The position numbers and the translations under genes were made by a program. A DNA stretch of 64,000 bases, taken from positions 19,271 to 83,270 of the IMG/VR virus record IMGVR_UViG_3300021400_000491; one strand, 5' to 3'. This document shows, in pieces, positions 25,371 to 49,993 of this stretch. This stretch comes from a virus (lineage: Duplodnaviria; Caudoviricetes). Position 1 is the first letter of the stretch. Every line of letters begins with the position of its first letter. The notes below the pieces were generated by a model. The model did no database searches and was not told where the DNA came from. It was given only the letters and a program-made list of their open reading frames with translations.

Positions 25371-25556
25371 ATGCAATTATGCCCGAAATGCAGAAAAGAA
25401 ATCAGATATATTCCTGTCAATTTTGATGAAGTTGTTATGTGTGAAGCTGATGTAACAACAATCTACACAGAGCGTGGGCGGTGTGTGGAAGGGTATCAAC
25501 CGCATAAATGCAAGGAGCTGAACAATGCCAAGAGCGAAGAAAACAACAACGGCTGA
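25371..25556 (+). CDS. Small Zn-ribbon hypothetical protein
   Basis: CPKC...C...HKC. Confidence 0.6.
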   Translation: MQLCPKCRKEIRYIPVNFDEVVMCEADVTTIYTERGRCVEGYQPHKCKELNNAKSEENNNG

Positions 25557-26292
25557 AAAAGAACAGAAAGAAAAAAAGCCTCGCAAACCGACAAAGAAAA
25601 CAATTCCGGCAGAAGGTGAGCCGACAAACTTAGACATTGATTTGAACTCTTTTGATTGGGGCGAAGATTGCAAGCTGAACGACAGACAGAAGTATTTTGT
25701 TATCTGGTTCACATATCCAGGAAGGACATATCACAACGCTATGCAATCTGCAATAAAAGCAGGATATACCAAAAAGACGGCTAATGTTTTGTCGCCCGCC
25801 ATACGAAGAAACCCGGAAATTTCCGCACTCATTAAAAAGTTTGATGATATGTATGTCAGAGAATCGCTTGATGATTTCTACCACCGGGCAATAACTGACA
25901 AGATTGCAAGAGCGACTTTTGATGTAAACGATTTTCACGAAGTCAAGAAATACACGGACAAGGACGGCAACGAAAGGGAGTATTTAAGCATTAAAGACCC
26001 TTCGACACTTACGCCGGAGCAGAGAAAGTGTATTGACGGTGTAAAGTTCAACAATAACGGAACGCCAAGCTATGAATTCGCAAACAGAACGCACGAAATG
26101 GAAGTTTTGATGAAGCTGCACGAAATGGCAAGCGGCGAGAAGAAAAACACAGAGAGCGAAATGGAATTGACCATTGAGCAGATAAAAGACAAAGTGACCG
26201 CAAAGCTGAAAGTCATTCAGAAAAAGGACGAAGAAGAAGAGCTTGCGGGTAAATACATTGACGAGCCGGACAATTTGCTAGAGGAAGCGTAA
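25525..26292 (+). CDS. terS: Terminase small subunit
   Basis: LNDRQKYFV...SAIKAGY; directly upstream of terL. Confidence 0.8.
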   Translation: MPRAKKTTTAEKEQKEKKPRKPTKKTIPAEGEPTNLDIDLNSFDWGEDCKLNDRQKYFVIWFTYPGRTYHNAMQSAIKAGYTKKTANVLSPAIRRNPEISALIKKFDDMYVRESLDDFYHRAITDKIARATFDVNDFHEVKKYTDKDGNEREYLSIKDPSTLTPEQRKCIDGVKFNNNGTPSYEFANRTHEMEVLMKLHEMASGEKKNTESEMELTIEQIKDKVTAKLKVIQKKDEEEELAGKYIDEPDNLLEEA

Positions 26293-27945
26293 ATGTTTAC
26301 ACCCGATGAAAGATTGCGGTTTTGTTACACCTTTATGAAGTTCAATGAGCGTGATATTGATTTAGACTTCTGGCAAAACCGCTATATCCGCAGTATGTCA
26401 AGATTCTCTATTCTGGTAAAATCACGCCGTACAGGTTTTTCTTTTGTGACTTCCATGAAGGGAGTTGTCAAAGCGATAGACCCGGATAGAGTAGCATATA
26501 CAAAGCAGTTTGTTTCTTACAACGAATCGGACGCGGTAGAAAAAATAAACTATGCCGCGCAATTCTATGAATCTCTTCCGGGAAATGTACGGAAAGTATG
26601 CAAGACAAACAACAAGACAGAACTTGATTTTCTTGACAAAAACGGAAAGACAATAAGCCGTCTTATCTCTATTCCTTGTCGCCCGCCTCGCGGAAAGGGA
26701 GGCGATATTGCCCTTGATGAATATGCGATTTATTTACCGAAAATGTCAGACGCAGTTTATACGGCTGCATTACCTGTAATTTCTCGTGGTGGTTGTATCG
26801 AAATGGGAAGCTCACCACTCGGAAAAATCGGCAAGTTTTATGAAATCTATTCTGACAAAGAAACATATAAGAGTTACGAACGCTATAACATTCCGTGGTG
26901 GTTCTCTTCTGGCTTGTGTGTTGATGTTCCAATGGCGGTAAAGATTGCGCCGGAAATGACAACAGAAGAGCGTGTTTTCACTTTTGGTACTGACATCATC
27001 AAAGAGATTTACAACTCTATGGAGCTGGAAAAGTTTCAGCAGGAATATGAATGTCGGTTCATTGATGAAGCTGCAAGTTATATCCCGCTTGAATTGATTT
27101 ATGAAAACACTCCCGGACGCGATAACGAAGAAAAACTTATCGAAATGAGTAAAGATGAATCAATCACCGATGAAGAGTATTGGGAATACAACAGGGGCGT
27201 TGATTTTCAAGCGTACACTTCGGAAGATGAAGCGATTCTGCAATACAACAAAGAAATGCACGGTTCACCTTTATTTCTGGGCTTCGATGTTGCAAAACAT
27301 CGGGATGCTATGTCTATTTATTTAATCGGTATGAAGGGCGACAAAAAAAGAAGTTTTGCCCGGATTGAAAGAAAAGGCATGAGCTATGAGCAGCAGGGAG
27401 ATATTGCCGAAAAGCTCTTTAGAGAATTACCGATTTACCGTGGCGCAATCGACCGAACAGGTAGCGGCGATGGCGTTTATGAGCGGCTCTACAAGAAATT
27501 CGGGGATAAAATAGATGGTGTATATTTCACTCCACAAATGAAAGAACAGCTTGCAATCGAAGCAAAAAGGGGATTGGAACAACACGAATTCGCACTTGAA
27601 AACAACAAAGATTTTCACTCACAGATTCACAGTATTAAGCGCATGGACGCTGTAGGAAAGTATTTCAGATATGACGCAGAGCGAAACGAGAAAGGTCATG
27701 CAGATAGTTTCTGGGCATGGGCTTTAGCGAACTTTGCGAGCATGGACGCTAAAAAAATATCGTTCTACAAACAATATGCTAGTCAAAAAAGCAATACTGT
27801 GGTACAATCGGTAGTAGATTCTACGATAAATCGCACAGAAAACGAAGTAAAACCCATCGAAAAACGCGCCGAAGCTCTGACCCATAAGCGCGGAAAATCG
27901 CTTGATAGCGTTATGCGGGGTTTTACAAATGCTTGGAATAAATAA
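26293..27945 (+). CDS. terL: Terminase large subunit
   Basis: KSRRTGFS, ALDEYA, SSPLGK, FQQEYECRF, GFDVAK, HADSFWA. Confidence 0.95.
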   Translation: MFTPDERLRFCYTFMKFNERDIDLDFWQNRYIRSMSRFSILVKSRRTGFSFVTSMKGVVKAIDPDRVAYTKQFVSYNESDAVEKINYAAQFYESLPGNVRKVCKTNNKTELDFLDKNGKTISRLISIPCRPPRGKGGDIALDEYAIYLPKMSDAVYTAALPVISRGGCIEMGSSPLGKIGKFYEIYSDKETYKSYERYNIPWWFSSGLCVDVPMAVKIAPEMTTEERVFTFGTDIIKEIYNSMELEKFQQEYECRFIDEAASYIPLELIYENTPGRDNEEKLIEMSKDESITDEEYWEYNRGVDFQAYTSEDEAILQYNKEMHGSPLFLGFDVAKHRDAMSIYLIGMKGDKKRSFARIERKGMSYEQQGDIAEKLFRELPIYRGAIDRTGSGDGVYERLYKKFGDKIDGVYFTPQMKEQLAIEAKRGLEQHEFALENNKDFHSQIHSIKRMDAVGKYFRYDAERNEKGHADSFWAWALANFASMDAKKISFYKQYASQKSNTVVQSVVDSTINRTENEVKPIEKRAEALTHKRGKSLDSVMRGFTNAWNK

Positions 27946-29554
27946 ACCTACTCCCATAAACATTAAGAAAGAAGTTGCAAGGCGAGCCGAATTTGACAAA
28001 ATGGGGCTGGGGCTGGGCGAAGGTTCTTTCTTCAATGACAACGGCAGACTACACGGCGCAAGTTCTTCATTCTTTGACCCATTCACAGTATCAGACACTT
28101 CAATCGCAGGATTACGATGTGTAAGCCGGGCAATGAACGGCTCTGTAAGTGCAAGCGTTTTACGCAGAATTGCAGATAAAGCATGGGTTATAAACATCTG
28201 TATCAACAACATTCAGAAAAAAGTTAAACCGTTTTTGAAACCTTCTACCGACCGCAACATTCGCGGTTTCGTAATCCTCAAAAAAGGCGAGGAACTCGGA
28301 AAAGCCGCCGGACAGAAAAGCGCAAAGCGAAAAGAAATCGAAGATTTCATAGTTCATACAGGAAACTACAAAGATACCGACCGTGACACTCTTACAGTGT
28401 TTTCAGAAAAGATTATCCGGGATTGGCTGACGATTGCACAGGCAAGTACAGAAATGCAGTACAATGTGGCAGGACAGCCGATAGCATTTTTTGCCGTGGA
28501 TTCCGGCACAATCGAGCGTGTTTTGCCGAATTCGGAACACCCGGAATTCAAATATGCGCAGGTAATACACGGTATGGCGCGGGTAGCATACACTGACAAG
28601 GAAATGATTGTTCAGATTGCAAATCCGCAGACTGATATTTACCGCTCATTCTATGGACACTCACCAATCGAACAGGCAATAGACCTTATTGCAAGCGAAA
28701 TCAACACAATCACATATAATGCCGGAGCATTTACAGAAAACAAATTGCCGCGCGGTATGCTTCTTGTTGACGGTGATTTGGATTATGAATCAACGGAAGA
28801 AATGGTTGATTATGTTTCTGAAATTATGAACGGAAGCCCGGCTAATCAGTGGCGAGTGCCTATCATTCCTTCTGGTGGCGGAAAAGAGGGCGGAAACAAT
28901 TCTATCAAGTGGGTACAGCTTGGCGGAAATAACCGCGATATGGAATTCTCAAATTGGCTCGACTTCCTTGTTTCAAATGTCGTAGCCCTTTTTGGTTGCA
29001 GCATGGAAGAGCTGGGGCTTCATTCGCAGAAGTCACAGGCAATGTTTGAGCGTGAAGGAAAGACACGAATTGAGCAGGCAAAATCTACAATTCTTGGCGA
29101 TACTCTCTCTTTCTTGCAAGATTACATCAACCGTATTCTTGATATTGCATACCCAGATTATGAGCTTGAATTCGTAGGGTACGAAAAAGACGACCCTAAA
29201 GCAATCGTTGACATTGATAAATCAGAAGTCGAAGCATACAAGACTTTGAACGAAAAGCGCGAAGAAAAGGGCATGAAAAAACTTGATGCCGAATGGGCTG
29301 ACATTCCGCTTAATCCGCAAGCCGTGCAGCTTTTCCAGAGCGCACAGGCACAACAGCAGCAGGGCGGAGATATGGGCGGCTCTGATGATGATTCATGGGG
29401 CGATTATCAAGGCGCAATTATGGGTGACGATGCCGAAGCTGGCGACTTTGGAAGTGAAGGAAATGCAGAAGAGCCTGCAGAAGAAAACGGCGGGGAAGAA
29501 ATGCAGAAGTCACTTCTTGAAAGAACAAGGGAACTTGTGAGAATCCGAATATGA
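27929..29554 (+). CDS. Portal protein
   Basis: FYGHSPIEQAI, FTENKLPRGML, LFGCSMEELG; position after terL. Confidence 0.9.
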   Translation: MLGINKPTPINIKKEVARRAEFDKMGLGLGEGSFFNDNGRLHGASSSFFDPFTVSDTSIAGLRCVSRAMNGSVSASVLRRIADKAWVINICINNIQKKVKPFLKPSTDRNIRGFVILKKGEELGKAAGQKSAKRKEIEDFIVHTGNYKDTDRDTLTVFSEKIIRDWLTIAQASTEMQYNVAGQPIAFFAVDSGTIERVLPNSEHPEFKYAQVIHGMARVAYTDKEMIVQIANPQTDIYRSFYGHSPIEQAIDLIASEINTITYNAGAFTENKLPRGMLLVDGDLDYESTEEMVDYVSEIMNGSPANQWRVPIIPSGGGKEGGNNSIKWVQLGGNNRDMEFSNWLDFLVSNVVALFGCSMEELGLHSQKSQAMFEREGKTRIEQAKSTILGDTLSFLQDYINRILDIAYPDYELEFVGYEKDDPKAIVDIDKSEVEAYKTLNEKREEKGMKKLDAEWADIPLNPQAVQLFQSAQAQQQQGGDMGGSDDDSWGDYQGAIMGDDAEAGDFGSEGNAEEPAEENGGEEMQKSLLERTRELVRIRI

Positions 29555-31230
29555 ACAAAACCGTAGTATTGGAATTCACAAACATTACACCTCAAAATTG
29601 CCGCTACAAGTTTGAAAAGGCGATTCACGCAGTTTCTAAACAACTCGGAATTCCTGTTTCTGTCGAAAAGCAGAATACAGAACATACAGGAGAGGCTTTT
29701 GCTTTTTCTTCGCAGGAGCAATTAACCTATAAGTGGTATGACTATTTCAATAACGCAATCAAAGAAGTTTATTATTTTGTCGCTGATTATTTTGATTTAC
29801 CGATTCAGAATGTACTTCAAAAAGCCGGGGAACTTATTCACAGAGGGCAGATTCTTTACTCACCCGAAACAGGAAAGCCGATTAAAAAGGCTGATTGGGA
29901 TAGATTTGTAAAGGCTCTTGAAAAGATTCTCAATCAGAAATTCAACGGCAGCGGAGAAAAGATTGTACTTGAAAGCAAGGCGTTAGGAAAACTTCTTGAC
30001 CGTATGCTTAAATACAATAAGTTGCCGGAAGTAAAAGACATCAGCCTTTCAGACATAAGATATTCAAACAAAACTTTTGACTACATCGCCGAAAGCACAA
30101 AGACCGCTGAAAAAGTTTTCGGGGCAATGGATAATACCCGGATAGAGCTTATTCAGCAGAGCGCGGCAGAAAGAATATCGGGAATGACTGACGAACTCAA
30201 AACCGAAGTAAAGCAGACCCTTATTGACGGCATAAAGTCACGCAAGGGAAAGCAGCAGATTTCACAAGACCTGTTCAACAGACTTTCCGGCACAAACAGA
30301 GATTTCCGAAAAATTGCCGACACAGAGATTCAGAACAACATAAACAATTCATTCATTGAAGAAGAAGTGTCTAACGCCGAGGCGGGGGAAAAAGTCTACT
30401 TTCAGCGCATGGAGATTGTAGACGGCGCAACTTGTCCTTTCTGCAAGAAGATGAACGGAGTAATTGCCGTATGGAGCGAAACACCACTTTCAAACGACAA
30501 GGTAGACGGCGACCCATACGCAACAGTAGCACTCTGGGAAGGTAAGGATTGGAACGGACAAAAGAACTATGTCGCAAACGGAGCTTTTCACCCTTATTGC
30601 CGGGGAATCTGGACTAGGTGGAATTCACGCATTAACGCATATTCCGCAATGCTCAAAAAGCGTAGTGAGGATTACAACAAGGCAATAGACAAAGCCCGCG
30701 AGGAATGGAAAGCAAAGGGAATCGAAAACCCGAACGACAAAACACCGGGATATATCGACCGTATCAATGAATTGTACAACGGCACTATTCAGAAATCACT
30801 CACTTGGAGCGGTCACGAATTGCAGGACAGATACAATTTTGCGGGGCTGAAAATCTCGGTAGAGAACAAGAAGGGAAGCACCCGAAGCGGAAAAGACAAA
30901 GACGGTCATGAGTGGCACACATTCATGCACTATGACTATGGCTATATACGAGGTACGGAAGGAACTGACGGCGACCATGTAGATTGCTATATAGGCGATA
31001 ACGAGGACGCAAAGAATGTTTACATCATTCATCAGAACGACCCTGTAACAAACAAGTATGATGAAGATAAATGTATGCTTGGTTTTGATTCTCTTGAATC
31101 TGCAAAGGCTGCATACCTCAAACAGTATGACAGACCGGGATTTTTAGGAAGCATTACCACAATGAGCATTGACGAATTCAAAGATTATGTACTTGCAAAA
31201 GAAAATCACGGAGAGCGAATTCAACCTTGA
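29551..31230 (+). CDS. Head morphogenesis protein (Mu gpF/SPP1 gp7-like) fused to inorganic pyrophosphatase-like domain
   Basis: RKIADTE, CPFC, HPYCRG; C-terminal ISVENKKGSTRSG...YGYIRGTEGTDGDHVDCY. Confidence 0.8.
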   Translation: MNKTVVLEFTNITPQNCRYKFEKAIHAVSKQLGIPVSVEKQNTEHTGEAFAFSSQEQLTYKWYDYFNNAIKEVYYFVADYFDLPIQNVLQKAGELIHRGQILYSPETGKPIKKADWDRFVKALEKILNQKFNGSGEKIVLESKALGKLLDRMLKYNKLPEVKDISLSDIRYSNKTFDYIAESTKTAEKVFGAMDNTRIELIQQSAAERISGMTDELKTEVKQTLIDGIKSRKGKQQISQDLFNRLSGTNRDFRKIADTEIQNNINNSFIEEEVSNAEAGEKVYFQRMEIVDGATCPFCKKMNGVIAVWSETPLSNDKVDGDPYATVALWEGKDWNGQKNYVANGAFHPYCRGIWTRWNSRINAYSAMLKKRSEDYNKAIDKAREEWKAKGIENPNDKTPGYIDRINELYNGTIQKSLTWSGHELQDRYNFAGLKISVENKKGSTRSGKDKDGHEWHTFMHYDYGYIRGTEGTDGDHVDCYIGDNEDAKNVYIIHQNDPVTNKYDEDKCMLGFDSLESAKAAYLKQYDRPGFLGSITTMSIDEFKDYVLAKENHGERIQP

Positions 31231-31299
31231 TTTTTTAGGTTGATTTAGGAAAAAACACCGAATTTGAGCAAATTTGCACAAACATTAAGGAGATATAAA

Positions 31300-34200
31300 A
31301 TGCTGATAATCAACAAAGAAAAGTTTGCAGAGATTCTTAAATCTGCTCTTGGTTCACAGAAAGGCGACCACGATTACATCTACCGTGTACCGATTGCAGA
31401 GAAACATAGTGGAAAGTCTGTTAGAAGGTATAAATATTTATACGCTTGGGAACAGATTAAAAAGCCTTTTGAAAAGCTGGCAGAGTTTTTCGGAATCAAC
31501 GAAAAACAGGTTGATGAAATGTATGCGAAAGAAAACATACAGAAAGATTTTAATGCCGACAAAAAGACTTTTGCGCAGCACCTTGTTGAATACTTCTCAC
31601 ATCGCAAACAGTGGGACGACCGATTTGCACCAAAAGAGAATCAGCAGAAATTCAATAAGCCTGTAAAAATGGCGACATTCAAAGAAAACGCCGATGTACT
31701 CTCAAAGGACATGGAAACACCCGCACCAGAGAATGACGAGCCGTCTTTATTCAGCGACAAGGAACTTAAAAAACTTGGGGCAAAAGATAAAGGCGAGTGG
31801 AAAGCAAACCCTTATTTAATGCGCCGTATCTGGGGAATGTTTACAGGAAAGACAATTCAGCAGCAGGAAAAACAGGAACAGGCAGCAGAAAAGAAAGTTG
31901 CTGATGAATCGGCAAAGAAAGAAGAGCAGAAGAAACTCATTGCGGAATTTGCTGAAAAGCATAACCTTGACCCAAAGAAAGTTGAAGCCGGAATGAAACA
32001 GGCTTTCAAAGAACTTGATAACATCGGGAAGAAAACCGAAAAGAAGCCGACAAAAGCGCAGCTTCTTAAAGATGTTATCAAGCCGCAGTTGTTTGATTTG
32101 GGAATTATCCCACATTCACAGATTGAAGCGACAAACACAGAGCAGATTGACAATGTACAGGCACTTCTTGAAACAATCGCAACAATGCCGAAGATGTACG
32201 AGGGCGACCATACGGCAAGGCTGCATTACTTTGTCGGCGGTATGGATTACTACATTACAGAGCTTGGCGACGATGGCGTAGGCTATGGTTATGTAGACAA
32301 CAACGGCGACCCAATGACTAGCGAATGGGGATATGTAGACCTTAAAGAGCTTGCTTCTGCAGGCGACATGAAGGGCTTGAATATTGACTATTTCTTCACT
32401 CCAAAACTTGTAGGCGACCTTATCAAAGAGAGCGGACACCGCGAACTTGCCGAAGAGTACGAAGATACTTACGGCGAAGAAGAAGCCGAAATGAAAGAAA
32501 AGGTAGAGGACAAGAAGCCTGCTGCACCTAAAAAAGTAGATTGGTATGAGGCTTTTGCTGGCTCATGGAATACTTTCTACCCAACAGGTACAGGAATGAA
32601 GCCTTATATCAACATTTCAAGAAAAGGCGCAAGAGGTGAGAAAATCGGAGAATCGAAAAGGGCAAATTCAAAAACAGATTTAAGCGGACTTTTTGACGGA
32701 GTAAACGATTTTGTTTTCAATACTGAATACATCGGGGAAAAATCAAGACAGAACTTTATCGAAAGACTTGCTGATTTGGGATTCCATGCGCAAAAAGAGT
32801 ACACGGACGAAAAAGGCAATACAAAGTATATGCTTATGATTCGTGACGGCTCAAAAGCCGGACTTGTCGAAATGATTCCGAATTCTGATTACAAGAAAAA
32901 AGAATACACCGTTATTACTCACGATGAAGCCGGAAACGAAACCGATAAGCAGGTATTCAGCGACATTGACAGCGCACAGGCTTTCATGGATAAGCAGAGA
33001 AAAGCACTTGAAGCCGGGGAAAGTGAAGCGGAGAAACACGAAAACCGCAGTAATGCAATGCTCGGAAATCAGAACGCAAAGAAATTCGGTATGCCGGAAG
33101 ATGTTTACGAAATCATGCGAAACATGGTGAGTGAACAGGTAAACGGACAGGGAATAAAAAATCGTCAAATACTGTTTGAAAAACTGTATAAAAAAGACGA
33201 TTATTTTAGAAAGAAACTTGATATGTACGGTGGTACAAGCAATGAAGAAATCACAGGCTATAAACGGTCTGATATTTTCAATGCTCTGTATGATGATGTA
33301 ACAGGAGGCGAACATGGAGAAGATAACTCTGGAATTGGACGAAATGGACTTTCCGCAGGTACTAGCGACTTACGGAGCGGAACAGGCGAAGGAAATGGCA
33401 ATAGCGATGTGTCTGAAACAGAATCAGCCATTGACGGAAACGAATTTGTACAGCAACCTCGCGAATCTGGAATCGGACTTGGAGAGCGAAGTTCTGACAA
33501 TGGACGAAACGGAGCAGGAAGCGGACGAGTAACAAAAGCGACCGCAAAACAAATCCGCGCAAAATGTCTTGAACTTCTCGCAACAAAGAAAGATTCTGAA
33601 ATGACCGCAGAAGATAAGGCACTTCTCGCACAATATGAAGGTGGCGGCGGATTAAATGAGGGCGGGCAGTCTACAAAAGCTGTACTCACTGAATTCTACA
33701 CTCCTAGAGATGTAATCTCTAAGGTGTGGGAGCTTGTAGACAAATACAATCCGAATCAGAAGAAAAAAGTCTTAGAGCCGTCTAGCGGTATTGGACGCTT
33801 TGCAGAAGGAAGAAACGAAGATTTCACGCTTTGCGAACTTGACGAAACAAGCGCACGAATTGCCGGAATTCTTCACCCGGATTCAGAAGTAAAGCAGGGG
33901 GCATTTCAAAAGCTCTTCATGCAGAATAACGCCGTAACAGGCTACAAAGGCGAACTGTACGATGTCGCAATCGGAAACCCGCCGTATGGAGCTTATAACG
34001 ACCTTTACAAAGGCATGGGAGAAGGAAAACACCACACACGCTATGAAGAATACTTTATTGACCGCTCTCTTGATACTCTCAAAGACGGTGGTATTCTTGC
34101 TTTTGTCGTTCCTTCTTCATTCTTGCGGGGCAAAAACGGCAAGGGAAAAGAAGCGATTGCAAAGAAAGGAAAGCTGCTCGAAGCGTGGCGACTTCCAAAA

Positions 34201-37200
34201 GGTACATTCAGCAGTACAGATGTTGGAACAGATATTATTGTCATTCAGAAGGGCAAGGGCGATATTGCCGACTATTGCGACAATAAATATTTTGCCGATA
34301 ATGAATCTCATGTAATCGGACACGAAACCGAAGGAAAAGACCGTTTCGGGAAGCCGACAAAGATTGTAAATCTCCCGGAAGGAAAGACAGTTGCAGAAGC
34401 AATTTCTATGATTGATACAAAAGCCGTTGAAGTCAAAGAGATTGCAAAGAATGTCGAAGTAAAGACCGTACAGGCTGATTTGTCAAAACGATTTACAGTT
34501 ATTGGCAAGTTACAGGTAGGCGCGGAACTTACACGCCCGGACGGAGCAAAAGGAAAAATCACATACATTACTGACGGCGGAATGATTGGTTACGAATTCG
34601 ACAGTAAGACCAATCCGGGCGGAAGAACAAGCCTTGAAGATTTTACCGTATTGGACGACAAGGAAACCGCCGAAGAAATCAGCCGCAAGCGTAGCGAAGC
34701 CATGAAGGGCAACGACAACGCAAAAAAGGCTTTCCACAAGCAGATTGTAAAGAAAGCTACAAAAGGCGATGTATTCACACCTTCTATCGGTAAGAATATG
34801 ACAGCGCAGGAATTCAACGCTAAATACTCAAAGGATATTCCAGAAGCTGACATGAAATTCTGGAAAGTAACCGATTGGGAAGGTAAGGTTGATGTAACAA
34901 AACTTACTGATGAAGAGCGTGAGGAACTTGGCAAAAACAAGAACTTTGTGACCGATGAAAACGGAAACTTTGTAAATGTCGCAAACTATGCAAGCGGAAA
35001 CATTGTTGAAAAACTCGCAAAACTTGAAGCCGAAAAAGACCGCATAAGCAAAGAATCTTACGAAGAAAAGAAAGCTATTCTTGAAGCCGTATTGCCTGCA
35101 AGAAAAAACATCATGCAGTTTACAATCTCGCCAAAAGAAAACTTTGCTTTGCAGTTCAAAGACGAGGACGGTATTTCTCTTAAAGACAAATTCCTTGCAT
35201 ATTGCGGATTTAATGAAAACGGAAGAATCGGCTGGAACTCTCATTGTCCTATTCCAAAGTCAGAGCTTGCGGACGGAATGACAATGCAGGATATTTGGGA
35301 TTATGTAAATCAGATTCCTGTAAGAACTGAAAGAACAAGAAACCCAGAGGACGCAGAAACCGCCAAAATGTTTGCGGAACAGAAAAAGAACGCAAGACGC
35401 GAAACAACAGAAAGACTTTTCAATAAGTGGTTGCGCGAACTCCCGGAAAGACAGCAGAACGCCATTGAAGATGAATGGAACGCAAGATTTAACTCACGCG
35501 TAAACCCAGATTATAAAAAGATTCCGCTTTTCGTTGACGGCATGAACACCCACAAGGGGAAGAAGAAATTCGACATGACCGAACAGCAGATTAAAGGCGT
35601 TTCTATGCTCTGCAATAAGGGTAATGGTATTCTTGCTTATGATGTTGGAGTAGGAAAAACTGTAACAGGTATTGTTGCGACTGTAAATCAGATTCAGACA
35701 GGAAAAGCAAAACGCCCGATTATCTGTGTACCAAAATCTGTTTACAAGAAATGGATTAAGGAAATTAAGCAGCATTTCCCAAATCAGACAATAAACGAAC
35801 TCGGAAATTTCAGCGAAAAGGACTTAGGCAGATTCAAAGATTCTGACGGTAAAGTAAACTTGCCGGAAGGTGCATTGAATGTCTGTACTTACGAAGCATT
35901 GCAGAAAGTCACTTTCAAAGAGGAAACTCTTAACGGTGATTTGCGTGATGATATGCTTGATTCACAGTCGGTATATGATTATGACGAATACGGAAATCTT
36001 GTAGAAGATACCCGAAGTGAGCGCGAAAAGGCACAGGCAGAAGAAAAACTGATGAAAATGCTCGGTATTGCAGCAGAAGCAAAGCCGGGAGCGGTTTATT
36101 GGGAAGATTTGGGAATTGACCATATCACAGTAGACGAGCTGCACAACTTCAAAAATGTTTTCTCAATTCCACGCACTTTTGGTAAATCTGTACGAAGTAC
36201 GAACGAAAAGAAAACCGATTATTGGGGAAGAAAGATTAAGGCAGACGACGACCCCGGACAGCTCTCAAACGAATACAGCGGTATGCAGGGAGCGACATCT
36301 GGACGCGCTATGAAACTCTTTGCAATTTCACAGTTGATTCAGAGAGAAACAAACGGAAGGGGATTCTTCGGACTTTCAGCAACGCCTTTCAATAACTCGC
36401 CTGTAGAGATTTACAACATTCTTTCTATGGTGGCAAGAAACCGCCTCAAAGATTTGGAAATCTACAATTTGCAGGACTTTATGAAGCAGTTTGCAGAAAT
36501 GAAGCCGGATTGGAAGGTACAGGCAAACGGTGATGTAGTATCAGCACAGGTTATGAAGAACTTCAAAAACCTTAACGCATTGCAGAATCTTATTACTGAA
36601 TTCATCGACAAGGTAGACGGTGAAGAAGCCGGAGTAGTAAGACCATACAAGAGAGTACACAAGCCGGAGCTTGATTTGACACCATTGCAGAAAGCAATCA
36701 TTAAGGCTGAAACTGACCGCATGGACGGCAAATTCTCAAAGCCGGGTGACGATAATAAAAACTCTGCTGACGCTCTTATTGCAATGAACAATATGCGAAT
36801 GGCTACCCTCTCACCGTGTCTGATTGACCCTAAATTCTGGGCTGATTATGAGGATTACGAGGGCTGGCACAAACCGCAGATGAAGGACATCGTAAAAGAA
36901 TCGCCTAAGCTGCAATTTGTTTGTGATATGACAAGCACACAGTACAAGGCTAGACCGTCAGAAGGACAGGTAATCTATATGCCTCGTGGTGTAGAGCAGT
37001 ATCATTATGTCAAAGATTATCTTGTTTCTAAAGGTGTTCCGGCTGACGCTATCGCCTTTATGGATTCAAGCACAAGCCTTGCAGACAAAGAGCGCATTAA
37101 GGACGACTTCAACGATGTGGACGGCAAGATTAAAATTATTATCGGTTCGGAAACAATCAAGGAAGGTGTTTCACTCAATGGAAACTCTACAACGCTTTAT

Positions 37201-38154
37201 AACACAATGCTTGGCTGGAATCCTACCGAAACAATACAGGTAGAAGGTCGTATCTGGCGACAGAATAACAAACAGGGAATTACTCATATCGTTTATCCGC
37301 TTATGAATGATTCCATTGACGCTATGATGTACCAGAAGTATGACGAAAAATCTAGCCGCCTTAACGCATTGTGGAGCTATAAGGGCGATTCTCTCAATGT
37401 TGAGGACATCAACCCGGAAGAGCTGAAATTTGAGCTTATCAAAGACCCGAAAAAGCGTGCAAGTATGAAAATCTTGCAGGAGCAGGCAGACTTGAAGAAG
37501 CAGCAGAAAATGACGGATGCGCTTTATGATACCATTGCCGAACAAATGAGCCAAAGAAAGAATCTGATAGGTAATACAGAGTATCAGACAAAGCAGATTC
37601 CAGAGTATGAAAAATCTGTTGCGAATTATACTAACCTCGTGGAAGAAACAGAAAAGAAACTGAAAGCCGCAAAGAAAGCGAAAGAAGATACTTGGAAAAT
37701 TGAGCGGGATTTGGAGAACTACAAATATTCTGTAAACTCTTACAAGTCGCAGCTTCGATTGGCAAACAAAGCCATTAAAGAAAATGGCGAATTGATTGCA
37801 GCCATTGAAAACTCTTGGAGAAAACAGGGAGTAGATAACCCGGAAAACATCGAGGAAAAACTTTCTGAAATCTCTGCAAGACGACACGAAATTTCAAACA
37901 AGCTCGGAGAAATTGAAGGTAAGTTTGATTTTTATGTGGCAGAAGCAAAGAAGCAAATTGAGGATGCACAGAGAAAACAGAAGCATTATTCTGTAGCTGA
38001 CCGCGTAGATTACTATGCAAAGGAAATCGGAAACGACTTGAAGCCTTTTGAAGAAATCAAAGACCAGATTAAGGCAGACATGGAAAAGAAGCGTAACGGT
38101 GGAATTGCAAAAGCGATTATCTATAACGGTCGCCTGCTGATTCAAAGAGCATAA
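31300..38154 (+). CDS. DarB-like polyvalent protein: DUF2958-like region, N6-adenine MTase and SNF2 helicase
   Basis: VLEPSSGIGRF, GNPPYG, DVGVGKT, VDELH, LSATP, QVEGRIWRQ; AGGAGA RBS before ATG 31300. Confidence 0.9.
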   Translation: MLIINKEKFAEILKSALGSQKGDHDYIYRVPIAEKHSGKSVRRYKYLYAWEQIKKPFEKLAEFFGINEKQVDEMYAKENIQKDFNADKKTFAQHLVEYFSHRKQWDDRFAPKENQQKFNKPVKMATFKENADVLSKDMETPAPENDEPSLFSDKELKKLGAKDKGEWKANPYLMRRIWGMFTGKTIQQQEKQEQAAEKKVADESAKKEEQKKLIAEFAEKHNLDPKKVEAGMKQAFKELDNIGKKTEKKPTKAQLLKDVIKPQLFDLGIIPHSQIEATNTEQIDNVQALLETIATMPKMYEGDHTARLHYFVGGMDYYITELGDDGVGYGYVDNNGDPMTSEWGYVDLKELASAGDMKGLNIDYFFTPKLVGDLIKESGHRELAEEYEDTYGEEEAEMKEKVEDKKPAAPKKVDWYEAFAGSWNTFYPTGTGMKPYINISRKGARGEKIGESKRANSKTDLSGLFDGVNDFVFNTEYIGEKSRQNFIERLADLGFHAQKEYTDEKGNTKYMLMIRDGSKAGLVEMIPNSDYKKKEYTVITHDEAGNETDKQVFSDIDSAQAFMDKQRKALEAGESEAEKHENRSNAMLGNQNAKKFGMPEDVYEIMRNMVSEQVNGQGIKNRQILFEKLYKKDDYFRKKLDMYGGTSNEEITGYKRSDIFNALYDDVTGGEHGEDNSGIGRNGLSAGTSDLRSGTGEGNGNSDVSETESAIDGNEFVQQPRESGIGLGERSSDNGRNGAGSGRVTKATAKQIRAKCLELLATKKDSEMTAEDKALLAQYEGGGGLNEGGQSTKAVLTEFYTPRDVISKVWELVDKYNPNQKKKVLEPSSGIGRFAEGRNEDFTLCELDETSARIAGILHPDSEVKQGAFQKLFMQNNAVTGYKGELYDVAIGNPPYGAYNDLYKGMGEGKHHTRYEEYFIDRSLDTLKDGGILAFVVPSSFLRGKNGKGKEAIAKKGKLLEAWRLPKGTFSSTDVGTDIIVIQKGKGDIADYCDNKYFADNESHVIGHETEGKDRFGKPTKIVNLPEGKTVAEAISMIDTKAVEVKEIAKNVEVKTVQADLSKRFTVIGKLQVGAELTRPDGAKGKITYITDGGMIGYEFDSKTNPGGRTSLEDFTVLDDKETAEEISRKRSEAMKGNDNAKKAFHKQIVKKATKGDVFTPSIGKNMTAQEFNAKYSKDIPEADMKFWKVTDWEGKVDVTKLTDEEREELGKNKNFVTDENGNFVNVANYASGNIVEKLAKLEAEKDRISKESYEEKKAILEAVLPARKNIMQFTISPKENFALQFKDEDGISLKDKFLAYCGFNENGRIGWNSHCPIPKSELADGMTMQDIWDYVNQIPVRTERTRNPEDAETAKMFAEQKKNARRETTERLFNKWLRELPERQQNAIEDEWNARFNSRVNPDYKKIPLFVDGMNTHKGKKKFDMTEQQIKGVSMLCNKGNGILAYDVGVGKTVTGIVATVNQIQTGKAKRPIICVPKSVYKKWIKEIKQHFPNQTINELGNFSEKDLGRFKDSDGKVNLPEGALNVCTYEALQKVTFKEETLNGDLRDDMLDSQSVYDYDEYGNLVEDTRSEREKAQAEEKLMKMLGIAAEAKPGAVYWEDLGIDHITVDELHNFKNVFSIPRTFGKSVRSTNEKKTDYWGRKIKADDDPGQLSNEYSGMQGATSGRAMKLFAISQLIQRETNGRGFFGLSATPFNNSPVEIYNILSMVARNRLKDLEIYNLQDFMKQFAEMKPDWKVQANGDVVSAQVMKNFKNLNALQNLITEFIDKVDGEEAGVVRPYKRVHKPELDLTPLQKAIIKAETDRMDGKFSKPGDDNKNSADALIAMNNMRMATLSPCLIDPKFWADYEDYEGWHKPQMKDIVKESPKLQFVCDMTSTQYKARPSEGQVIYMPRGVEQYHYVKDYLVSKGVPADAIAFMDSSTSLADKERIKDDFNDVDGKIKIIIGSETIKEGVSLNGNSTTLYNTMLGWNPTETIQVEGRIWRQNNKQGITHIVYPLMNDSIDAMMYQKYDEKSSRLNALWSYKGDSLNVEDINPEELKFELIKDPKKRASMKILQEQADLKKQQKMTDALYDTIAEQMSQRKNLIGNTEYQTKQIPEYEKSVANYTNLVEETEKKLKAAKKAKEDTWKIERDLENYKYSVNSYKSQLRLANKAIKENGELIAAIENSWRKQGVDNPENIEEKLSEISARRHEISNKLGEIEGKFDFYVAEAKKQIEDAQRKQKHYSVADRVDYYAKEIGNDLKPFEEIKDQIKADMEKKRNGGIAKAIIYNGRLLIQRA

Positions 38155-38272
38155 TTGCAAAAACGGCTGTTATGCCTTATAATGCAATTAAAATATTTAT
38201 TCTTGGTAGTTATGCAGAAGCAAACGCCGATTATTCCATGATTCAATTCTTGGGATAGTCGGCGTTTTTTTT
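38155..38272 (+). promoter_or_regulatory. Promoter TTGCAA-17-TATAAT followed by short leader and long terminator hairpin
   Basis: AAACGCCGATTATTCC...GGGATAGTCGGCGTTTTTTTT. Confidence 0.75.
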
Positions 38273-38287
38273 GTTCCGGGGGATTAT

Positions 38288-40525
38288 ATGACAAAACTTG
38301 TTTTTAATGCTGAAACACTTGCAAAGTCAATTAACAGTGAAAACGGAAACGAGATTGTTTTCGAGGAATACTTTGACATTCAGAAATCAGAAGGGGAGAA
38401 TCCGAAAGACCCGAAATTTGAGTATTTCAAAAAAAAGATTCTTGACCATTTGGCAGAATTGGAGAAGAAAGAAAATCACTCCATTGCAAAGGCAATCGAC
38501 ATTGACGAGTGGATTCAGAAAGCAAATTTCCCGGTCGGAACTGTAAGAACTTGGAACGGTCAGAAGTTCAAGAAAATCACGCCTAAAAAGTGGGCGCGAG
38601 TTTATGAAACTGAAAGCAAGGGCGCAAAACTTGCCGTTGCTGCATTGAGAAGAAAAGCCGCCGCCTGCAGAAACTCGGAAGAACTTTTACAGCTCTGTTT
38701 GGAGAACATGGAGCGATTCAGAGATAACAACGGACACCCATTGCCATTCATGCAGGAGTTTTCAGAGTATGTTTCGGGGCTGAATGACGCTCACGAAGGA
38801 AAGAAGGGTAAAACCGTTACAGAAGCAAAAGCAAAAAGTGACAGTACCGCAAATATGCAGACAGGCGAAAAAACACAGGAAGCATTTTCAAAACTTGTGG
38901 AAGAAGCCACAAAGGAATGTGAAAAGCACGAATTAAGCCGGGCAGAAATGCTCAAAAAGCCTATTTCTACAATCCAGAAACACGCCAATTCAAAAGTTGA
39001 AGATTTTGAGGGCGGTATTGATGATTTTATCGACTATATGAGAAAAGGACAGCCGAATATCTCAATGCAGGAAGTGGGAAAGGAATTTGCAAAACTCATA
39101 AATCACAATATCGCAAGAAAGATTTTTGAAGATTACGACAAAGGCTATTACACAATCGGAGCAGACGGAATACTTGAAGAAGCAAGCAAGACAAAACCGA
39201 ATGAAGAGCCAAAAAAGACAGAACCTAAGCAGGATAACGAGCCGCCGAAAACCGACAATGAGCCGAAGAAAAAAGGCATTGAATCTATCCGGGAGAAATA
39301 TCAATCTTCTTTATCCGTTGAAGGTGATGAAGATGAAATCTATGTTGGTAAGGAAGCAATACAAGGAAAGTGGAAACTTGTAGAAGCTGACGCACCTAGC
39401 GCAAGCCATGATGAAATCACTTTCCACAAGACAGAAGGATTCCCGACCGCAAAAGACGGTAGCACGGTAAACGATAGAGATTATGAGCATGACACGGCGG
39501 CACAGGAAACCGTAATTGACATTGCTTCTGATTTTGACGGCAGGGCTTTAGGCTTTGATTCTCCAATCGTTGTTACACAGGACGGCGTTGTTACATCTGG
39601 AAATAACCGCACAATGTCTAGCAAGATTGCCGCAAGAAAGGGAACTGATACAAAGTACATTGAAGCATTGAAGAAACGCGCTAAAAAGTTCGGTTTCTCT
39701 GCTGATGATGTGGCAAAGTTCAAGCACCCTCGTGTAGTTTTTGAAACAGAGCATACAGGCGACTACACAACAAGCGAATTCGCAAAATACAACGAATCGG
39801 GTAAAAAGGCTATGAATCCTGTTGAAAAAGCCGTAAAAGTTTCAAAGATGATTCAGCCGCAGACCATTGAAGATGTAGCAAGTATTATCGGCGAATTTGA
39901 CACTATGGGCGATTTGTACGCTGATAAAAAAGCAAGTCAGAGTATTTTTAATACGCTTATTCAGTCAAACATCATTCAGAAAACAGACCTTCCGCAGTAT
40001 TACAGTGACAACACAGTAACAGCATCCGGCAAGGAGTTTCTGGAAACTGTATTGATTGGTAGCGTTATCAACGAAACAAACATCAGAAACTTAAACACAG
40101 AGGGCGGACGCTCTATCAGACAGAAACTTGTAAGGGCAATTACTCCATTGATTGAAAACAAGGGAATGAAAGGTTATTCAATCAACAAGGAACTGAACGA
40201 AGCCGTAAGTATTGCCGTTGAGGTTACGCACCATAAAGACCAATTCCCGAATGTGGAAGCATTTTCTAAGCAGCAGGATATGTTTAGAAAACTTGACCCT
40301 GTTTCAATCGAACTTGCAAAAAAACTTGAAGGAACGCAGAAAGGCTTTGCGGAATTCATGCTTGATATGAACGGCGGATTAAGACCAGCCGCAAACGGTG
40401 AGGTTGATATTTTCTTGGGCGAATGTGAGAGCAAAGAAGATATTGTAAACCGTGTATTGAACATCAAGAAGACTGTAGAAAAGGCATTAAGCCGATTCTT
40501 TAGGATTTTTGGAACAACAATGTAA
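38288..40525 (+). CDS. Polyvalent protein with DdrB-like ParB domain
   Basis: WKLVEADAPSASHD...NDRDY...SPIVVTQDGVVTSGNNRTM. Confidence 0.75.
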   Translation: MTKLVFNAETLAKSINSENGNEIVFEEYFDIQKSEGENPKDPKFEYFKKKILDHLAELEKKENHSIAKAIDIDEWIQKANFPVGTVRTWNGQKFKKITPKKWARVYETESKGAKLAVAALRRKAAACRNSEELLQLCLENMERFRDNNGHPLPFMQEFSEYVSGLNDAHEGKKGKTVTEAKAKSDSTANMQTGEKTQEAFSKLVEEATKECEKHELSRAEMLKKPISTIQKHANSKVEDFEGGIDDFIDYMRKGQPNISMQEVGKEFAKLINHNIARKIFEDYDKGYYTIGADGILEEASKTKPNEEPKKTEPKQDNEPPKTDNEPKKKGIESIREKYQSSLSVEGDEDEIYVGKEAIQGKWKLVEADAPSASHDEITFHKTEGFPTAKDGSTVNDRDYEHDTAAQETVIDIASDFDGRALGFDSPIVVTQDGVVTSGNNRTMSSKIAARKGTDTKYIEALKKRAKKFGFSADDVAKFKHPRVVFETEHTGDYTTSEFAKYNESGKKAMNPVEKAVKVSKMIQPQTIEDVASIIGEFDTMGDLYADKKASQSIFNTLIQSNIIQKTDLPQYYSDNTVTASGKEFLETVLIGSVINETNIRNLNTEGGRSIRQKLVRAITPLIENKGMKGYSINKELNEAVSIAVEVTHHKDQFPNVEAFSKQQDMFRKLDPVSIELAKKLEGTQKGFAEFMLDMNGGLRPAANGEVDIFLGECESKEDIVNRVLNIKKTVEKALSRFFRIFGTTM

Positions 40526-40552
40526 TTAAGGCAAGGAAGGAGATATAGCAAT

Positions 40553-41857
40553 ATGAATCTTGTTGTAAACATGGCGAAATTGAAACAGGCGGGATTTGGT
40601 GACATTATTGAAAAGGCACAGAAAAAGAACTTTTCCGTATGGCACACAAAGAACGGAGATATACCGATGAAAAAAGTCGGTGAAAAATGGGTGCCTGCAA
40701 ATGTCGGACAGGGAAATTCTGCTGATACAGAAATCCAGAAGCGCAAGCGCGTAGCAGATATTAAGGCAATGACAAAACGCGGTGACATGATTCGCTTTGA
40801 AAGAGAGAAGAAACTTATTGACGGTATGGTTGTCGCAAAAGGTGACGATGGCGTAACAGCAAAGAAAGAAGCGTTTGCTTATCAAGTGCCTTATGAAAAC
40901 ATCAAACAGAATTTGACCAAAGAGGGAACAATAAGCCCGGAAAACTTCAACGCTGCTGATTATCGCAATAAATATCAAGATTCAAAAATTGCCGAATTGG
41001 AAAAAGCAAGTAAGGGCGCAGGTGTAAAATACTTCCTTGACAAATACCTTCCGGGAGCAGAAGGAAAGGAAATGTCAAAGAAAGCTGATGAAACCGAATT
41101 AAGGGTAAAAAATCAGATTGCAACAGACGGACAGACAATCGACAATTTCAGAATTTCCGGCGAAGGTGTAGACGCTGTTTATTCAGATGAAAGAGCCGCC
41201 TTGCATGAGAAAATAATGGACTATTATTTCTCACCAGATAAGATTGCAAAAGCAAAACCGAAGCCCGGACAGAAGCCAATGCTCGTAATGCTCGGTGGAA
41301 GAGCGGGCGCGGGTAAATCATGGTTCACAAATACAGAAGAAGGTGGCTTATACAATCCCGAAGAGTTTATTGTTTTGGACGCAGACGCAATCAAGAGCGG
41401 AGTATATGACAAGAACGGTAAAGAATTGTGTCCACCGCTTCCAGAATACGAAGGTTGGAACGCTGGAACAGTTCACGAAGAATCATCTGACTTAAACAAA
41501 AAACTCATTGATATGGCTATGAAAATGGGGCTGAATGTCATTATTGACGGCACTATGAACAGCCCTAAGAAATCCGTAAAACAGATACAGGATTTCAAGA
41601 AAGCCGGGTATTTCACAAGCTGTGATTATATGTTTACGCCAATGCAGGAATCAATGCAAAGAGCCTGCAGCAGATTCAAAACACGAAAGAATGACTATTC
41701 GGGGCGTTTTGTTCCGCTCGGTATTATGACCGAAATGACACAAAACGAGGACGCTTTTGAAGCTGTAAAAGGCTTGGTAGACAGGTATTCTTTCCGGGAT
41801 AACTTCAATCAGACAAACGGAATGGCAACATTGATTTGTCAAAAAGGAGATTATTAA
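40553..41857 (+). CDS. Zeta-toxin-family P-loop kinase with N-terminal extension
   Basis: MLGGRAGAGKS, LDADAIK, VHEESS, VIIDGTM, GRFVP. Confidence 0.85.
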   Translation: MNLVVNMAKLKQAGFGDIIEKAQKKNFSVWHTKNGDIPMKKVGEKWVPANVGQGNSADTEIQKRKRVADIKAMTKRGDMIRFEREKKLIDGMVVAKGDDGVTAKKEAFAYQVPYENIKQNLTKEGTISPENFNAADYRNKYQDSKIAELEKASKGAGVKYFLDKYLPGAEGKEMSKKADETELRVKNQIATDGQTIDNFRISGEGVDAVYSDERAALHEKIMDYYFSPDKIAKAKPKPGQKPMLVMLGGRAGAGKSWFTNTEEGGLYNPEEFIVLDADAIKSGVYDKNGKELCPPLPEYEGWNAGTVHEESSDLNKKLIDMAMKMGLNVIIDGTMNSPKKSVKQIQDFKKAGYFTSCDYMFTPMQESMQRACSRFKTRKNDYSGRFVPLGIMTEMTQNEDAFEAVKGLVDRYSFRDNFNQTNGMATLICQKGDY

Positions 41858-41879
41858 CACCAAAATTTACTACAAATTG

Positions 41880-41908
41880 TTGCAATAATGCCGATAGTGT
41901 AGTATATT
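41880..41908 (+). promoter_or_regulatory. Promoter for small moron ORF
   Basis: TTGCAA-17-TATATT. Confidence 0.65.
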
Positions 41909-41927
41909 ATAAGTGGAGGTAGAGGCT

Positions 41928-42098
41928 ATGGAAAAGAAAAACGCAAAAGAATTCATGGAAAAGAACTTCCATAATCCCGAATGGTGGGCTTCTGGCGACT
42001 ATGCTGACGACCCAAACAAAAAACCTTCTAAACAGCATACAGACCAATTAGAGCGGATTAAAAACCGCGCTAAAGAAGCTGGGGTAAAACTTTCATAA
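41928..42098 (+). CDS. Small hypothetical protein (56 aa) with own promoter and terminator
   Basis: GGAGGT/GAGG RBS. Confidence 0.7.
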   Translation: MEKKNAKEFMEKNFHNPEWWASGDYADDPNKKPSKQHTDQLERIKNRAKEAGVKLS

Positions 42099-42109
42099 AC
42101 GAGATTTTC

Positions 42110-42137
42110 AAGCCGTGCAGATAATGTACGGCTTTTA
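42110..42137 (+). terminator. Intrinsic terminator
   Basis: AAGCCGTGCA-GATAA-TGTACGGCTTTT. Confidence 0.7.
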
Positions 42138-42154
42138 TTATCTAGGGGGCTTTT

Positions 42155-42682
42155 ATGAAGATTCATAACGCTATTATCTTTGCTTCAATCAAACATCAGA
42201 ATCAGAAACGCAAGGGAACGAATCTACCGTACATTGTTCACCCTATGGAAGTTATGCAGATTCTCACGGAAAACGGCTGTAGTGAGAATGTAATTGTTGC
42301 CGGAATTCTGCATGATACACTTGAAGATACTGACACTCGCCCGGAAGAAATTGAAAAAGAATTTGGGAAAGATATTCTTGCGATAGTCCAGACTGAAAGC
42401 GAGGATAAATCAAAGACTTGGAAGGAACGAAAACAGCACACTATTGATTGTCTTAAAACAGATTCACTTGAAACAAAACTTGTTTGTTGTGCTGATAAAC
42501 TCTCAAATATCCGCAGTATGTATGTTGACTTTCAGAATTGTGGGGCTGAACTCTGGAAGCGTTTTAATGCAAGTAAAGAAGATATAGGGTGGTATTATCA
42601 TTCCATTGCAGACAATCTTTCGGGGCTTGAAGGTTATAAAATGTATGATGAATTGCAAAAATATGTAGGAATACTGTTTTAA
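42155..42682 (+). CDS. HD-domain hydrolase, MESH1/SpoT-hydrolase-like (HD_4)
   Basis: HQNQKRKGTNLPYIVHPMEV...AGILHDTLEDT...ADKLSN. Confidence 0.92.
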   Translation: MKIHNAIIFASIKHQNQKRKGTNLPYIVHPMEVMQILTENGCSENVIVAGILHDTLEDTDTRPEEIEKEFGKDILAIVQTESEDKSKTWKERKQHTIDCLKTDSLETKLVCCADKLSNIRSMYVDFQNCGAELWKRFNASKEDIGWYYHSIADNLSGLEGYKMYDELQKYVGILF

Positions 42683-42739
42683 TACTATAAAAAGTATTCA
42701 ATTCTTGACAGCGTATTATTTTACTGATAAAATAATCAT

Positions 42740-49989: not shown

Positions 49990-49993
49990 AATC

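Follow-up and report, generated by a model that had tools for sequence, protein, structure and literature searches.

A proposed slot for leader-tagged cargo among the head genes of a temperate Treponema phage

Between the portal and prohead protease genes of the phage represented by IMG/VR virus record IMGVR_UViG_3300021400_000491 lies a 13-kb stretch that we describe here as the cargo slot of the head module. The phage, which we call a temperate Treponema myovirus, was analysed over a window of 64,000 nucleotides, bases 19271-83270 of an 83,270-bp record rated complete by CheckV; positions below are those of the window unless stated otherwise. The slot holds five enzyme genes and one small open reading frame (ORF), all co-oriented. 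We propose, with a probability of about 0.6, that this is a leader-tagged cargo slot, whose enzymes would be loaded into the procapsid, trimmed of their leaders and ejected together with the DNA; packaging, cleavage and injection are here inferred from sequence. It is plausible that four of the five enzymes are capsid cargo, three by way of a shared N-terminal leader and one by way of a MuF domain. The earlier note on this DNA had placed a five-gene island between portal and protease; the genes proved to lie at its coordinates, all on the + strand, and the flanking genes were as it described. The genes of the slot and its borders, identified by Pfam and PHROGs searches, are the following (aa, amino acids; h, hydrophobic residue; x, any residue; the slash in a cut motif marks the proposed cut).

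27902-29554, + strand: portal gene, the upstream border of the slot, whose stop overlaps the next start by 4 nt (Phage_portal 1.4e-13, phrog_12 2e-34)
29551-31230, + strand: protein with MuF (SPP1 gp7-like, aa 219-316) and InPase (aa 426-547) domains (InPase 4.5e-46; MuF sub-threshold)
31300-38154, + strand: DarB-like protein of 2,284 aa with a leader, an N-terminal region of ~740 aa, an N6-adenine methyltransferase (MTase), a superfamily 2 (SF2)/SNF2 helicase and a coiled-coil tail (Pfam, PHROGs)
31300-31341, + strand: first 14 aa of the DarB-like protein, a leader closed by the putative h-x-K/S cut motif (from sequence)
38288-40525, + strand: ddrB-ParB protein of 745 aa with a leader (aa 1-13), a shared module (~aa 40-175), a ParB-like domain (aa 357-481) and a C-terminal part (PF18763 1.4e-9)
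40553-41857, + strand: zeta/PezT/AvrRxo1-type kinase of 434 aa with a leader (aa 1-21), a basic hairpin, a beta domain, a helical domain and a P-loop kinase domain (aa 243-431) (Zeta_toxin 2.9e-24)
41928-42098, + strand: 56-aa ORF (start call)
42155-42682, + strand: HD_4 protein assigned to the small alarmone hydrolases (Mesh1/SAH family), leaderless (HD_4 2.2e-17)
42956-44491, + strand: fusion of a prohead protease and a scaffold-like C-terminal half, bordering the slot downstream (phrog_1028 3.6e-26)
44507-45976, + strand: major capsid protein, with a predicted maturation cut after K23 (codons 44573-44578) (phrog_752 3.7e-62)

The leader was recognised by comparing the slot across about 30 non-redundant relatives, with start codons chosen objectively by Shine-Dalgarno strength; the material compared comprised five whole records, 66 contigs from genomes and 35 from viruses. 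Large slot proteins begin with three hydrophobic residues, Lys-Ser, an amphipathic stretch and a final Lys followed by Ala, Ser or Gly. For 60 large slot proteins, taken from 29 non-redundant genomes, N-terminal similarity was counted only for pairs with non-homologous bodies and had a mean of 3.70. Sets drawn at random from the other ORFs gave -2.41 +/- 0.53 (z = 11.6), and not one of 2,000 such sets came up to the observed value. The pattern is kept at the protein level over unrelated bodies. All its carriers are large proteins encoded in the head module or close to it, and none of the structural, replication and tail proteins tested has it. In the window, the leaders of the DarB-like, ddrB-ParB and zeta proteins are alike as a triple when set against random triples within the genome (p = 2.5e-4), and a matrix trained on the relatives only ranked the ddrB-ParB protein 1st, the DarB-like protein 6th and the zeta kinase 12th of 110 ORFs. 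The MuF-InPase protein, whose N-terminus is unlike that of the other cargo, and the HD protein do not share the leader. The earlier note had envisaged all five enzymes as one co-packaged toolkit; the leader speaks for three of them and is missing from the other two.

In relatives the leader is joined to a basic hairpin in a 45-aa cassette, which heads a zeta kinase in one genome (L078) and a protein lacking Walker A in two others (L019 and L026). A profile of this cassette matched 479 representative proteins among 1.84 billion, 94 of them at E<=1e-10. The matches fall mostly within residues 1-59 of proteins of 66-2,258 aa, and some are internal and repeated, at the joints of giant proteins. 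Any Pfam family was found in the bodies of only 16 of 77 cassette proteins scanned: zeta in six, and InPase, ART-PolyVal, PBECR1, PBECR3, S-adenosylmethionine (SAM) lyase, RadC and others in one each. Neither the cassette nor the leader has a Pfam model. We tentatively suggest that leader and hairpin may form a widespread tag for capsid loading and cutting, one that Lys-specific prohead proteases would recognise throughout a large clade of spirochaete and other phages, though for this wider claim the odds are somewhat below even.

The motif in which the leaders end, h-x-K/[SAG], recurs on the proteins that build the head. Following a variable N-arm, the capsid protein reads L21-E22-K23-A24-L25; E22 is present in at least 90% of 18 homologues and the other four positions are invariant, down to 45% identity. 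The pattern h-x-K-[SAG]-h is found between residues 12 and 32 in each of 25 non-redundant capsid proteins. Protease-scaffold proteins carry the motif at 19.5 per 1,000 aa versus 5.15 overall, a roughly 4-fold excess (Poisson P = 6e-62), and the protease-scaffold protein of the window has 10 h-x-K-[SAG]-h sites in 511 aa. The motif lies within residues 5-32 of 27/44 large slot proteins compared with 38/210 other ORFs (Fisher 2e-8), and most of those 38 are themselves homologues of capsid, protease, scaffold or cargo proteins whose genes lie elsewhere than in the slot. The window has such sites at K14/S in the DarB-like protein, K13/S in the ddrB-ParB protein and K415/S at the joint between the MuF and InPase domains. 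We consider that h-x-K/[SAG] is likely to be the cutting site of the head protease. As a separate observation, the protease-scaffold gene (43520-43597) encodes a copy of the capsid cut site and of the ~30 residues that follow it (44573-44651); the two are 58-68% identical over 31 aa by BLASTP, in relatives as well, and the copy may be a docking or self-cleavage mimic.

Judged from its content in relatives, the island is an accessory cargo slot within the head operon. Of the five whole records, four have a cleanly delimited gap of 16-19 kb between portal and protease; the remaining one (G005) looks rearranged, since the one portal match in it is ~33 kb away from the protease and other phage genes intervene. 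The protease follows directly after the portal, leaving the slot empty, in L005-8, L050, L081 and L093, and so the head can form without the island. Elsewhere the slot is filled with changing sets of DarB-like, ddrB-ParB, zeta and HD genes, with small leaderless genes interspersed, and one relative (L021) has a ddrB-ParB and InPase fusion protein of 1,521 aa. Some slot proteins of relatives carry the polyvalent-protein domains LPD1, LPD3 and MuF_C, and 12 of 19 examined have no Pfam match at all. Exchange is visible even at short distance: in a 98%-identical relative (L003), the zeta body and the small ORF have been swapped for a 35%-identical variant while the first 21 codons were kept, and the middle of the ddrB-ParB gene has likewise been swapped. 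Leaderless metabolic genes also occupy the slot in some relatives, among them a 560-aa MTase with DUF4942 (L040, the G001 island) and a gene annotated as thymidylate synthase, gp12 of Leptospira phage LE1 (L043).

On the basis of these observations, we propose the following model. The leader would act as a capsid-targeting sequence through which the DarB-like, ddrB-ParB and zeta proteins enter the procapsid, as do the internal proteins and Alt of T4 and DarB of P1. The MuF-InPase protein would enter by its MuF domain at the portal, in the manner of SPP1 gp7. Once inside, the leaders would be trimmed by the prohead protease, which would perhaps also release InPase at K415, and the enzymes would then be ejected together with the DNA. 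In the new host the MTase-helicase would shield the incoming DNA from restriction, like P1 DarB, the ParB-like and InPase enzymes would act on DNA or nucleotide signals, and the zeta kinase would phosphorylate a nucleotide-sugar or NAD-type substrate. In the producing or lysogenic cell, the 56-aa ORF would serve as a specific inhibitor of the kinase and the HD protein as a general alarmone hydrolase.

Every domain that the earlier note had named was found. The InPase, Zeta_toxin, HD_4, ddrB-ParB, Eco57I-type MTase, SNF2 and Helicase_C models all score above their Pfam cut-offs, and by reading the catalytic motifs are intact (NPPY, the SAM loop, helicase motifs I, II, III and VI, Walker A and LDAD of zeta, and HD..ED). 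Two or more disparate effector domains share a polypeptide in two cases, MTase with SNF2 (2,284 aa) and MuF with InPase (559 aa). The MuF part, called gpF in the earlier note, stands less firmly: three models match the same residues (aa 219-316), each with a score below its curated cut-off or, for PHROG 758, at 1.4e-6 (Pfam 25.1 versus 29.6 bits; TIGR01641 30.1 versus 39.65). The MuF-InPase gene also directly follows the portal in relatives G001-G004, and terL in G005. In another relative (L039, 2115-5762), the InPase domain of the MuF cargo is split by an intein with a LAGLIDADG endonuclease (Intein_splicing 3.1e-8, LAGLIDADG_3 1.1e-4).

The ORF of the DarB-like protein opens at 31264, and its real start is the ATG at 31300, which has AAGGAG 7 nt upstream. 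The protein matches Eco57I-type MTase (2.4e-11), SNF2 (2e-11), Helicase_C (8e-8) and phrog_10089, 'DarB-like antirestriction' (6e-72), and carries NPPY, GKT, DELH, SATP and QxxGRxxR; at 2,284 aa, with both domains above cut-offs, it is the 2.3-kaa MTase/SNF2 protein that had been noted earlier. By tblastn it matches annotated DarB-like genes of isolated phages at 23-33% identity. Its N-terminal ~740 aa gave only noise in Pfam searches of sub-segments (E up to 1) and no usable ESM Atlas match; for aa 280-760, an AlphaFold2 (AF2) model built with 12 rows had a predicted local distance difference test (pLDDT) score of 56, and the best Z of a wide VIA-align search, 5.6, was within noise. A likeness of aa 300-390 to DUF2958 was considered, found no support in Pfam and was dropped. 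The ddrB-ParB protein scores 38.6 bits against PF18763 (cut-off 27.6), and its N-terminal module (~aa 40-175) is common to other cargo across relatives; searches of the PDB by sequence found no relative for it or for the prohead protease. A second, conserved motif, AM-x-GN-x-NA, was found among 1,670 ORFs in 20, each of which encodes a cargo protein, at one to three copies in large proteins of the DarB-like and ddrB-ParB types and preceded by a stretch rich in Glu, Lys and His. This junction motif and the Lys cut motif are not the same. No zincin-like metallopeptidase (MPTase) domain was found by Pfam in any island protein. The sole MPTase match in the genome, at 12638-12811, is outside the island and sub-threshold; it lies in a 266-aa protein of the early region (12557-13357) whose metallopeptidase matches, DUF6782 (5.7e-5) and MPTase-PolyVal (16.9 bits), are all of that kind.

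The remaining features of the region are listed here.

25525-26292, + strand: small terminase gene
26293-27945, + strand: large terminase gene
33055-33078, + strand: AM-x-GN-x-NA junction motif, copy 1 (aa 586 of the DarB-like protein), upstream of the MTase (motif scan)
34699-34722, + strand: AM-x-GN-x-NA junction motif, copy 2 (aa 1134), at the joint of MTase and helicase (motif scan)
38155-38183, + strand: promoter-like site before the ddrB-ParB gene (10/12 consensus positions; a consensus match only)
41880-41908, + strand: promoter-like site before the small ORF (consensus match)
42110-42134, + strand: terminator-like hairpin behind the small ORF (from sequence)
42705-42733, + strand: best promoter-like site of the region, within the 273-nt gap before the protease gene (11/12 consensus positions and an extended -10 TG)

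The zeta kinase and the two genes behind it stand in an order that resembles toxin-immunity modules. The kinase scores 86.1 bits against PF06414 (cut-off 22.3), with GxxGxGKS at 248 and LDAD at 275; its AF2 model has a pLDDT of 79 and is matched by Foldseek to 1gvn and 4z8q at 8e-9, or at E about 1e-8 when 2p5t is included, so that its nearest folds are the toxins zeta, PezT and AvrRxo1. Each of these toxins is known with a protein inhibitor, and in epsilon/zeta the inhibitor gene lies upstream of the toxin. Here a 56-aa ORF, absent from the gene list of the earlier note, lies downstream of the kinase, has its own promoter-like site and terminator-like hairpin, and was replaced together with the zeta body in L003. 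PADLOC and family-model searches gave no family match for it, and we regard it as a candidate cognate inhibitor of the kinase. The HD protein is a single domain of ~180 aa with a His...HD..ED metal site (HD..ED at residue 53) and is the best-conserved product of the island, at 63-73% identity in relatives. Its matches (7qoe 8e-30, 4yf1 2e-29 and Mesh1 5vxa 7.5e-20 in the PDB; PF13328 63.7 bits) identify it as a member of the small alarmone hydrolase family. It has no leader and is more likely not packaged, and the HD gene and the 56-aa ORF are most likely non-packaged immunity or helper genes.

A number of observations weigh against leader-tagged capsid loading. The MuF-InPase protein matches MuF models only below curated cut-offs. 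The cut motif is common in this lysine-rich proteome and the cargo bodies are not enriched for it, while the zeta leader offers only a relaxed fit, K21/A, which is also the exact recombination breakpoint of L003. Leaders are more alike within a genome than between genomes by a marginal amount (6.6 versus 3.6, p = 0.053), and a cassette hidden Markov model built without the window rows did not detect the divergent leaders of the window, so that the evidence in the window itself rests on the matrix ranking and on similarity within the genome. Nor does the HD gene find a dedicated role: its co-occurrence with zeta across 24 genomes is not significant (7/15 versus 1/9), as would be wanted of a zeta antidote, and no RelA_SpoT domain is encoded in the genome to which it could give immunity as the counterpart of an alarmone synthetase. 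It is conceivable, although in our view unlikely, that the island genes encode ordinary late intracellular enzymes which are never packaged. Progeny DNA would then be methylated by the MTase-helicase ahead of packaging, a toxin-antitoxin or addiction module would be made up of the zeta kinase, the small ORF and the HD gene, and the likeness of the N-termini would have another purpose, for instance chaperone binding or translation control. The island is indeed interrupted by promoter-like sites and a terminator-like hairpin, the order of zeta, small ORF and HD resembles that of toxin-immunity modules, and the window leaders match the family consensus weakly. Against this view stands a leader that is restricted to large proteins in and near the head module, that bears the motif marking the capsid N-arm and the scaffold, and that is kept over unrelated bodies; furthermore, the MuF family consists of head proteins, and the homologous DarB and DdrB are virion proteins of P1, where DarB has an N-terminal targeting signal (PMC9024508).

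A slightly less probable alternative accepts packaging and injection but gives them a harmful purpose, the island being an arsenal of MuF-type polymorphic toxins which would arrest or kill non-lysogenic competitors, with the 56-aa ORF and the HD gene as immunity genes that shield lysogens from sibling virions. Behind MuF polymorphic toxins of temperate phages one does find a small gene for specific immunity and then a generic HD hydrolase (PMC12226406), the closest folds of the kinase are toxins, the promoter and terminator of the small ORF would suit expression in a lysogen, and this ORF co-varies with the zeta body in L003. Yet anti-restriction families account for the two largest components (DarB-like and ddrB-ParB), the kinase here carries no MuF fusion, and relatives exist that have HD without zeta and zeta without HD. 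We give very little credence to a third possibility, that a defence island protecting the lysogen, of the DISARM or restriction-modification kind with an MTase and an SNF2 helicase, was inserted in the head operon by chance. In PADLOC the DarB-like protein does show weak partial matches, both to MTases (orphan and type II) and to DrmD and DrmA in their helicase-C part, but these concern generic domains only, and the other five island proteins match nothing. A partner nuclease or DUF1998 protein is absent, the genes run in one direction at close spacing in the late operon, and in relatives the same slot holds MuF, InPase, LPD and PBECR domains.

The phage itself is, on genomic evidence, a temperate Treponema phage of 83 kb, since it encodes a tyrosine integrase, near-identical copies are embedded in 112-157 kb contigs of Treponema metagenome-assembled genomes (MAGs) and one relative is flagged as a provirus; that it was temperate had been suggested before. 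Its capsid protein has ~200 metagenomic homologues at 45-98% identity, and those in species-representative genomes come mostly from MAGs of Treponema and other spirochaetes from the guts of ruminants, horse and deer. The Twort/A511-type head suggested earlier is upheld as a remote relationship only, the capsid protein being at most 24-27% identical to those of isolated phages, and megablast of the island DNA against isolated phages gave no match. The tail sheath gene starts at 53191, downstream of the head module. The ends of the record (bases 3-72 versus 83201-83270, the latter being window 63931-64000) match over ~70 bases at 97%, with 2 mismatches; because of this match, the genome is probably circular or terminally redundant even though the record is classed 'linear'.

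Four other loci lie outside the slot. An HNH endonuclease gene (49357-49989; phrog_374 1.3e-72) has the look of a mobile homing endonuclease that inserted into the late operon, and bases 49355-50002 are precisely missing in a 98%-identical relative (L002). Upstream of the window, a reverse transcriptase gene at record bases 12037-13056 (phrog_1423 6.8e-94) stands just after an 822-aa tail-fibre-like gene (9185-11653), and the pair is a candidate diversity-generating retroelement aimed at the fibre. The non-structural regions encode a C-5 cytosine DNA methylase (3471-4706, - strand; 7e-44) and a protein resembling 3'-phosphoadenosine-5'-phosphosulphate (PAPS) reductase (59823-60725, - strand; phrog_424 2.4e-32).

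The island adds no new principle, as its domains and the idea of packaged anti-restriction cargo have already been published. The family-wide leader with its Lys-type cut motif has no Pfam model, and we did not find it described in the literature consulted on polyvalent, Dar and MuF systems. Leader and motif together make packaging directly testable. If the proposal is true, the tag is an address label by which hundreds of injected effectors could be identified from sequence alone. A tag that loads capsids would provide a sequence rule for the injected effectors of uncultured phages, where most of the tagged proteins scanned have no known domain, as well as a second, Lys-type example of the targeting principle of T4 and P1 that could be used to load foreign proteins into heads. 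Gut and rumen Treponema are hard to culture, and capsid loading by the tag would offer a concrete picture of how their phages counter restriction and nucleotide-based defences.

In phage T4, the internal proteins IPI-III and Alt have a capsid targeting sequence that is cut by the prohead protease gp21 after Glu. The present system resembles it in that several separate cargo proteins share a short leader with a putative head-protease motif at its end, a motif which is also found on capsid and scaffold. In contrast, the cut proposed here would fall after Lys (h-x-K before Ser, Ala or Gly), the cargo consists of very large multi-domain enzymes, and a basic hairpin often follows the leader.

The Dar system of P1 protects against type I restriction. 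P1 packages DarB, DdrB, DarA, Hdf, DdrA and Ulx in its virion, and DarB can be targeted to the capsid by its first 30 residues alone, while the N-termini of its Dar proteins have no consensus (PMC9024508). Like P1, the phage studied here has a very large protein (~2,200 aa) combining an N6-MTase with an SF2 helicase, has a DdrB-type ParB protein and encodes both beside the portal and protease genes (ulx-darB-prt-pro in P1). Unlike P1, it has a shared N-terminus on three of the proteins, its ddrB-ParB protein lacks the C-terminal MPTase, and InPase, zeta and HD are extra components. A DarA_N model had no match in the genome, but control genomes were equally silent; Hdf, DdrA and Ulx were not identified in the island with libraries that hold no models of them. 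The island had been described as Dar-like and polyvalent, and while its polyvalent-type domains support the description, the likeness to Dar extends to the DarB-like and ddrB-ParB components only.

Polyvalent proteins offer a second comparison. Iyer et al., 2017 (PMC5512222) describe the MTase-helicase dyad, DdrB-ParB, InPase alongside either MuF or portal, and fusions of MuF with a zeta-like kinase, and report that spirochaete prophages are rich in polyvalent proteins. The domain repertoire and the late-gene context match, whereas the arsenal is here split over four or five genes and has no MPTase; term searches of that paper returned no mention of a shared N-terminal leader or of the AM-x-GN-x-NA motif. 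MuF polymorphic toxin modules have the known gene order apk2-iapK-aph1 (PMC12226406), in which, as here, a head-associated nucleotide enzyme of toxin type is followed by a small gene and then by an HD-family hydrolase. Where that module has a (p)ppApp synthetase, the present one has a zeta-type kinase, which is separate from MuF, and RelA/SpoT domains are missing from the genome, but by analogy the logic of a MuF toxin, a specific immunity gene and a generic HD hydrolase probably applies.

The closest isolated relative of the DarB-like protein is that of Leptospira phage LE1 (NC_048892), at 33% identity over ~1,350 aa. Virion proteomics is available for LE3 and LE4, which are unrelated 48-kb phages without a DarB-like gene (PMC6078989). 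LE1 differs from the present phage in that it replicates as a plasmid prophage and has its ParB protein gene downstream of the capsid gene, and no zeta or HD is among the annotated products of the stretch, with no domain search made on LE1. The earlier note knew of no characterisation of this combination, which holds for experiments, but each domain is catalogued in PMC5512222 and LE1 has the same layout. From gp10 to gp26, it encodes a portal, accessory genes, a 1,972-aa MTase/helicase, a protease and a capsid protein, and the MTase/helicase gp15 and the ParB-domain protein gp26, whose annotations go no further than 'restriction endonuclease subunit M' and 'ParB N-terminal domain-containing protein', share one N-terminus, much as three of the slot proteins of the Treponema phage share a leader.

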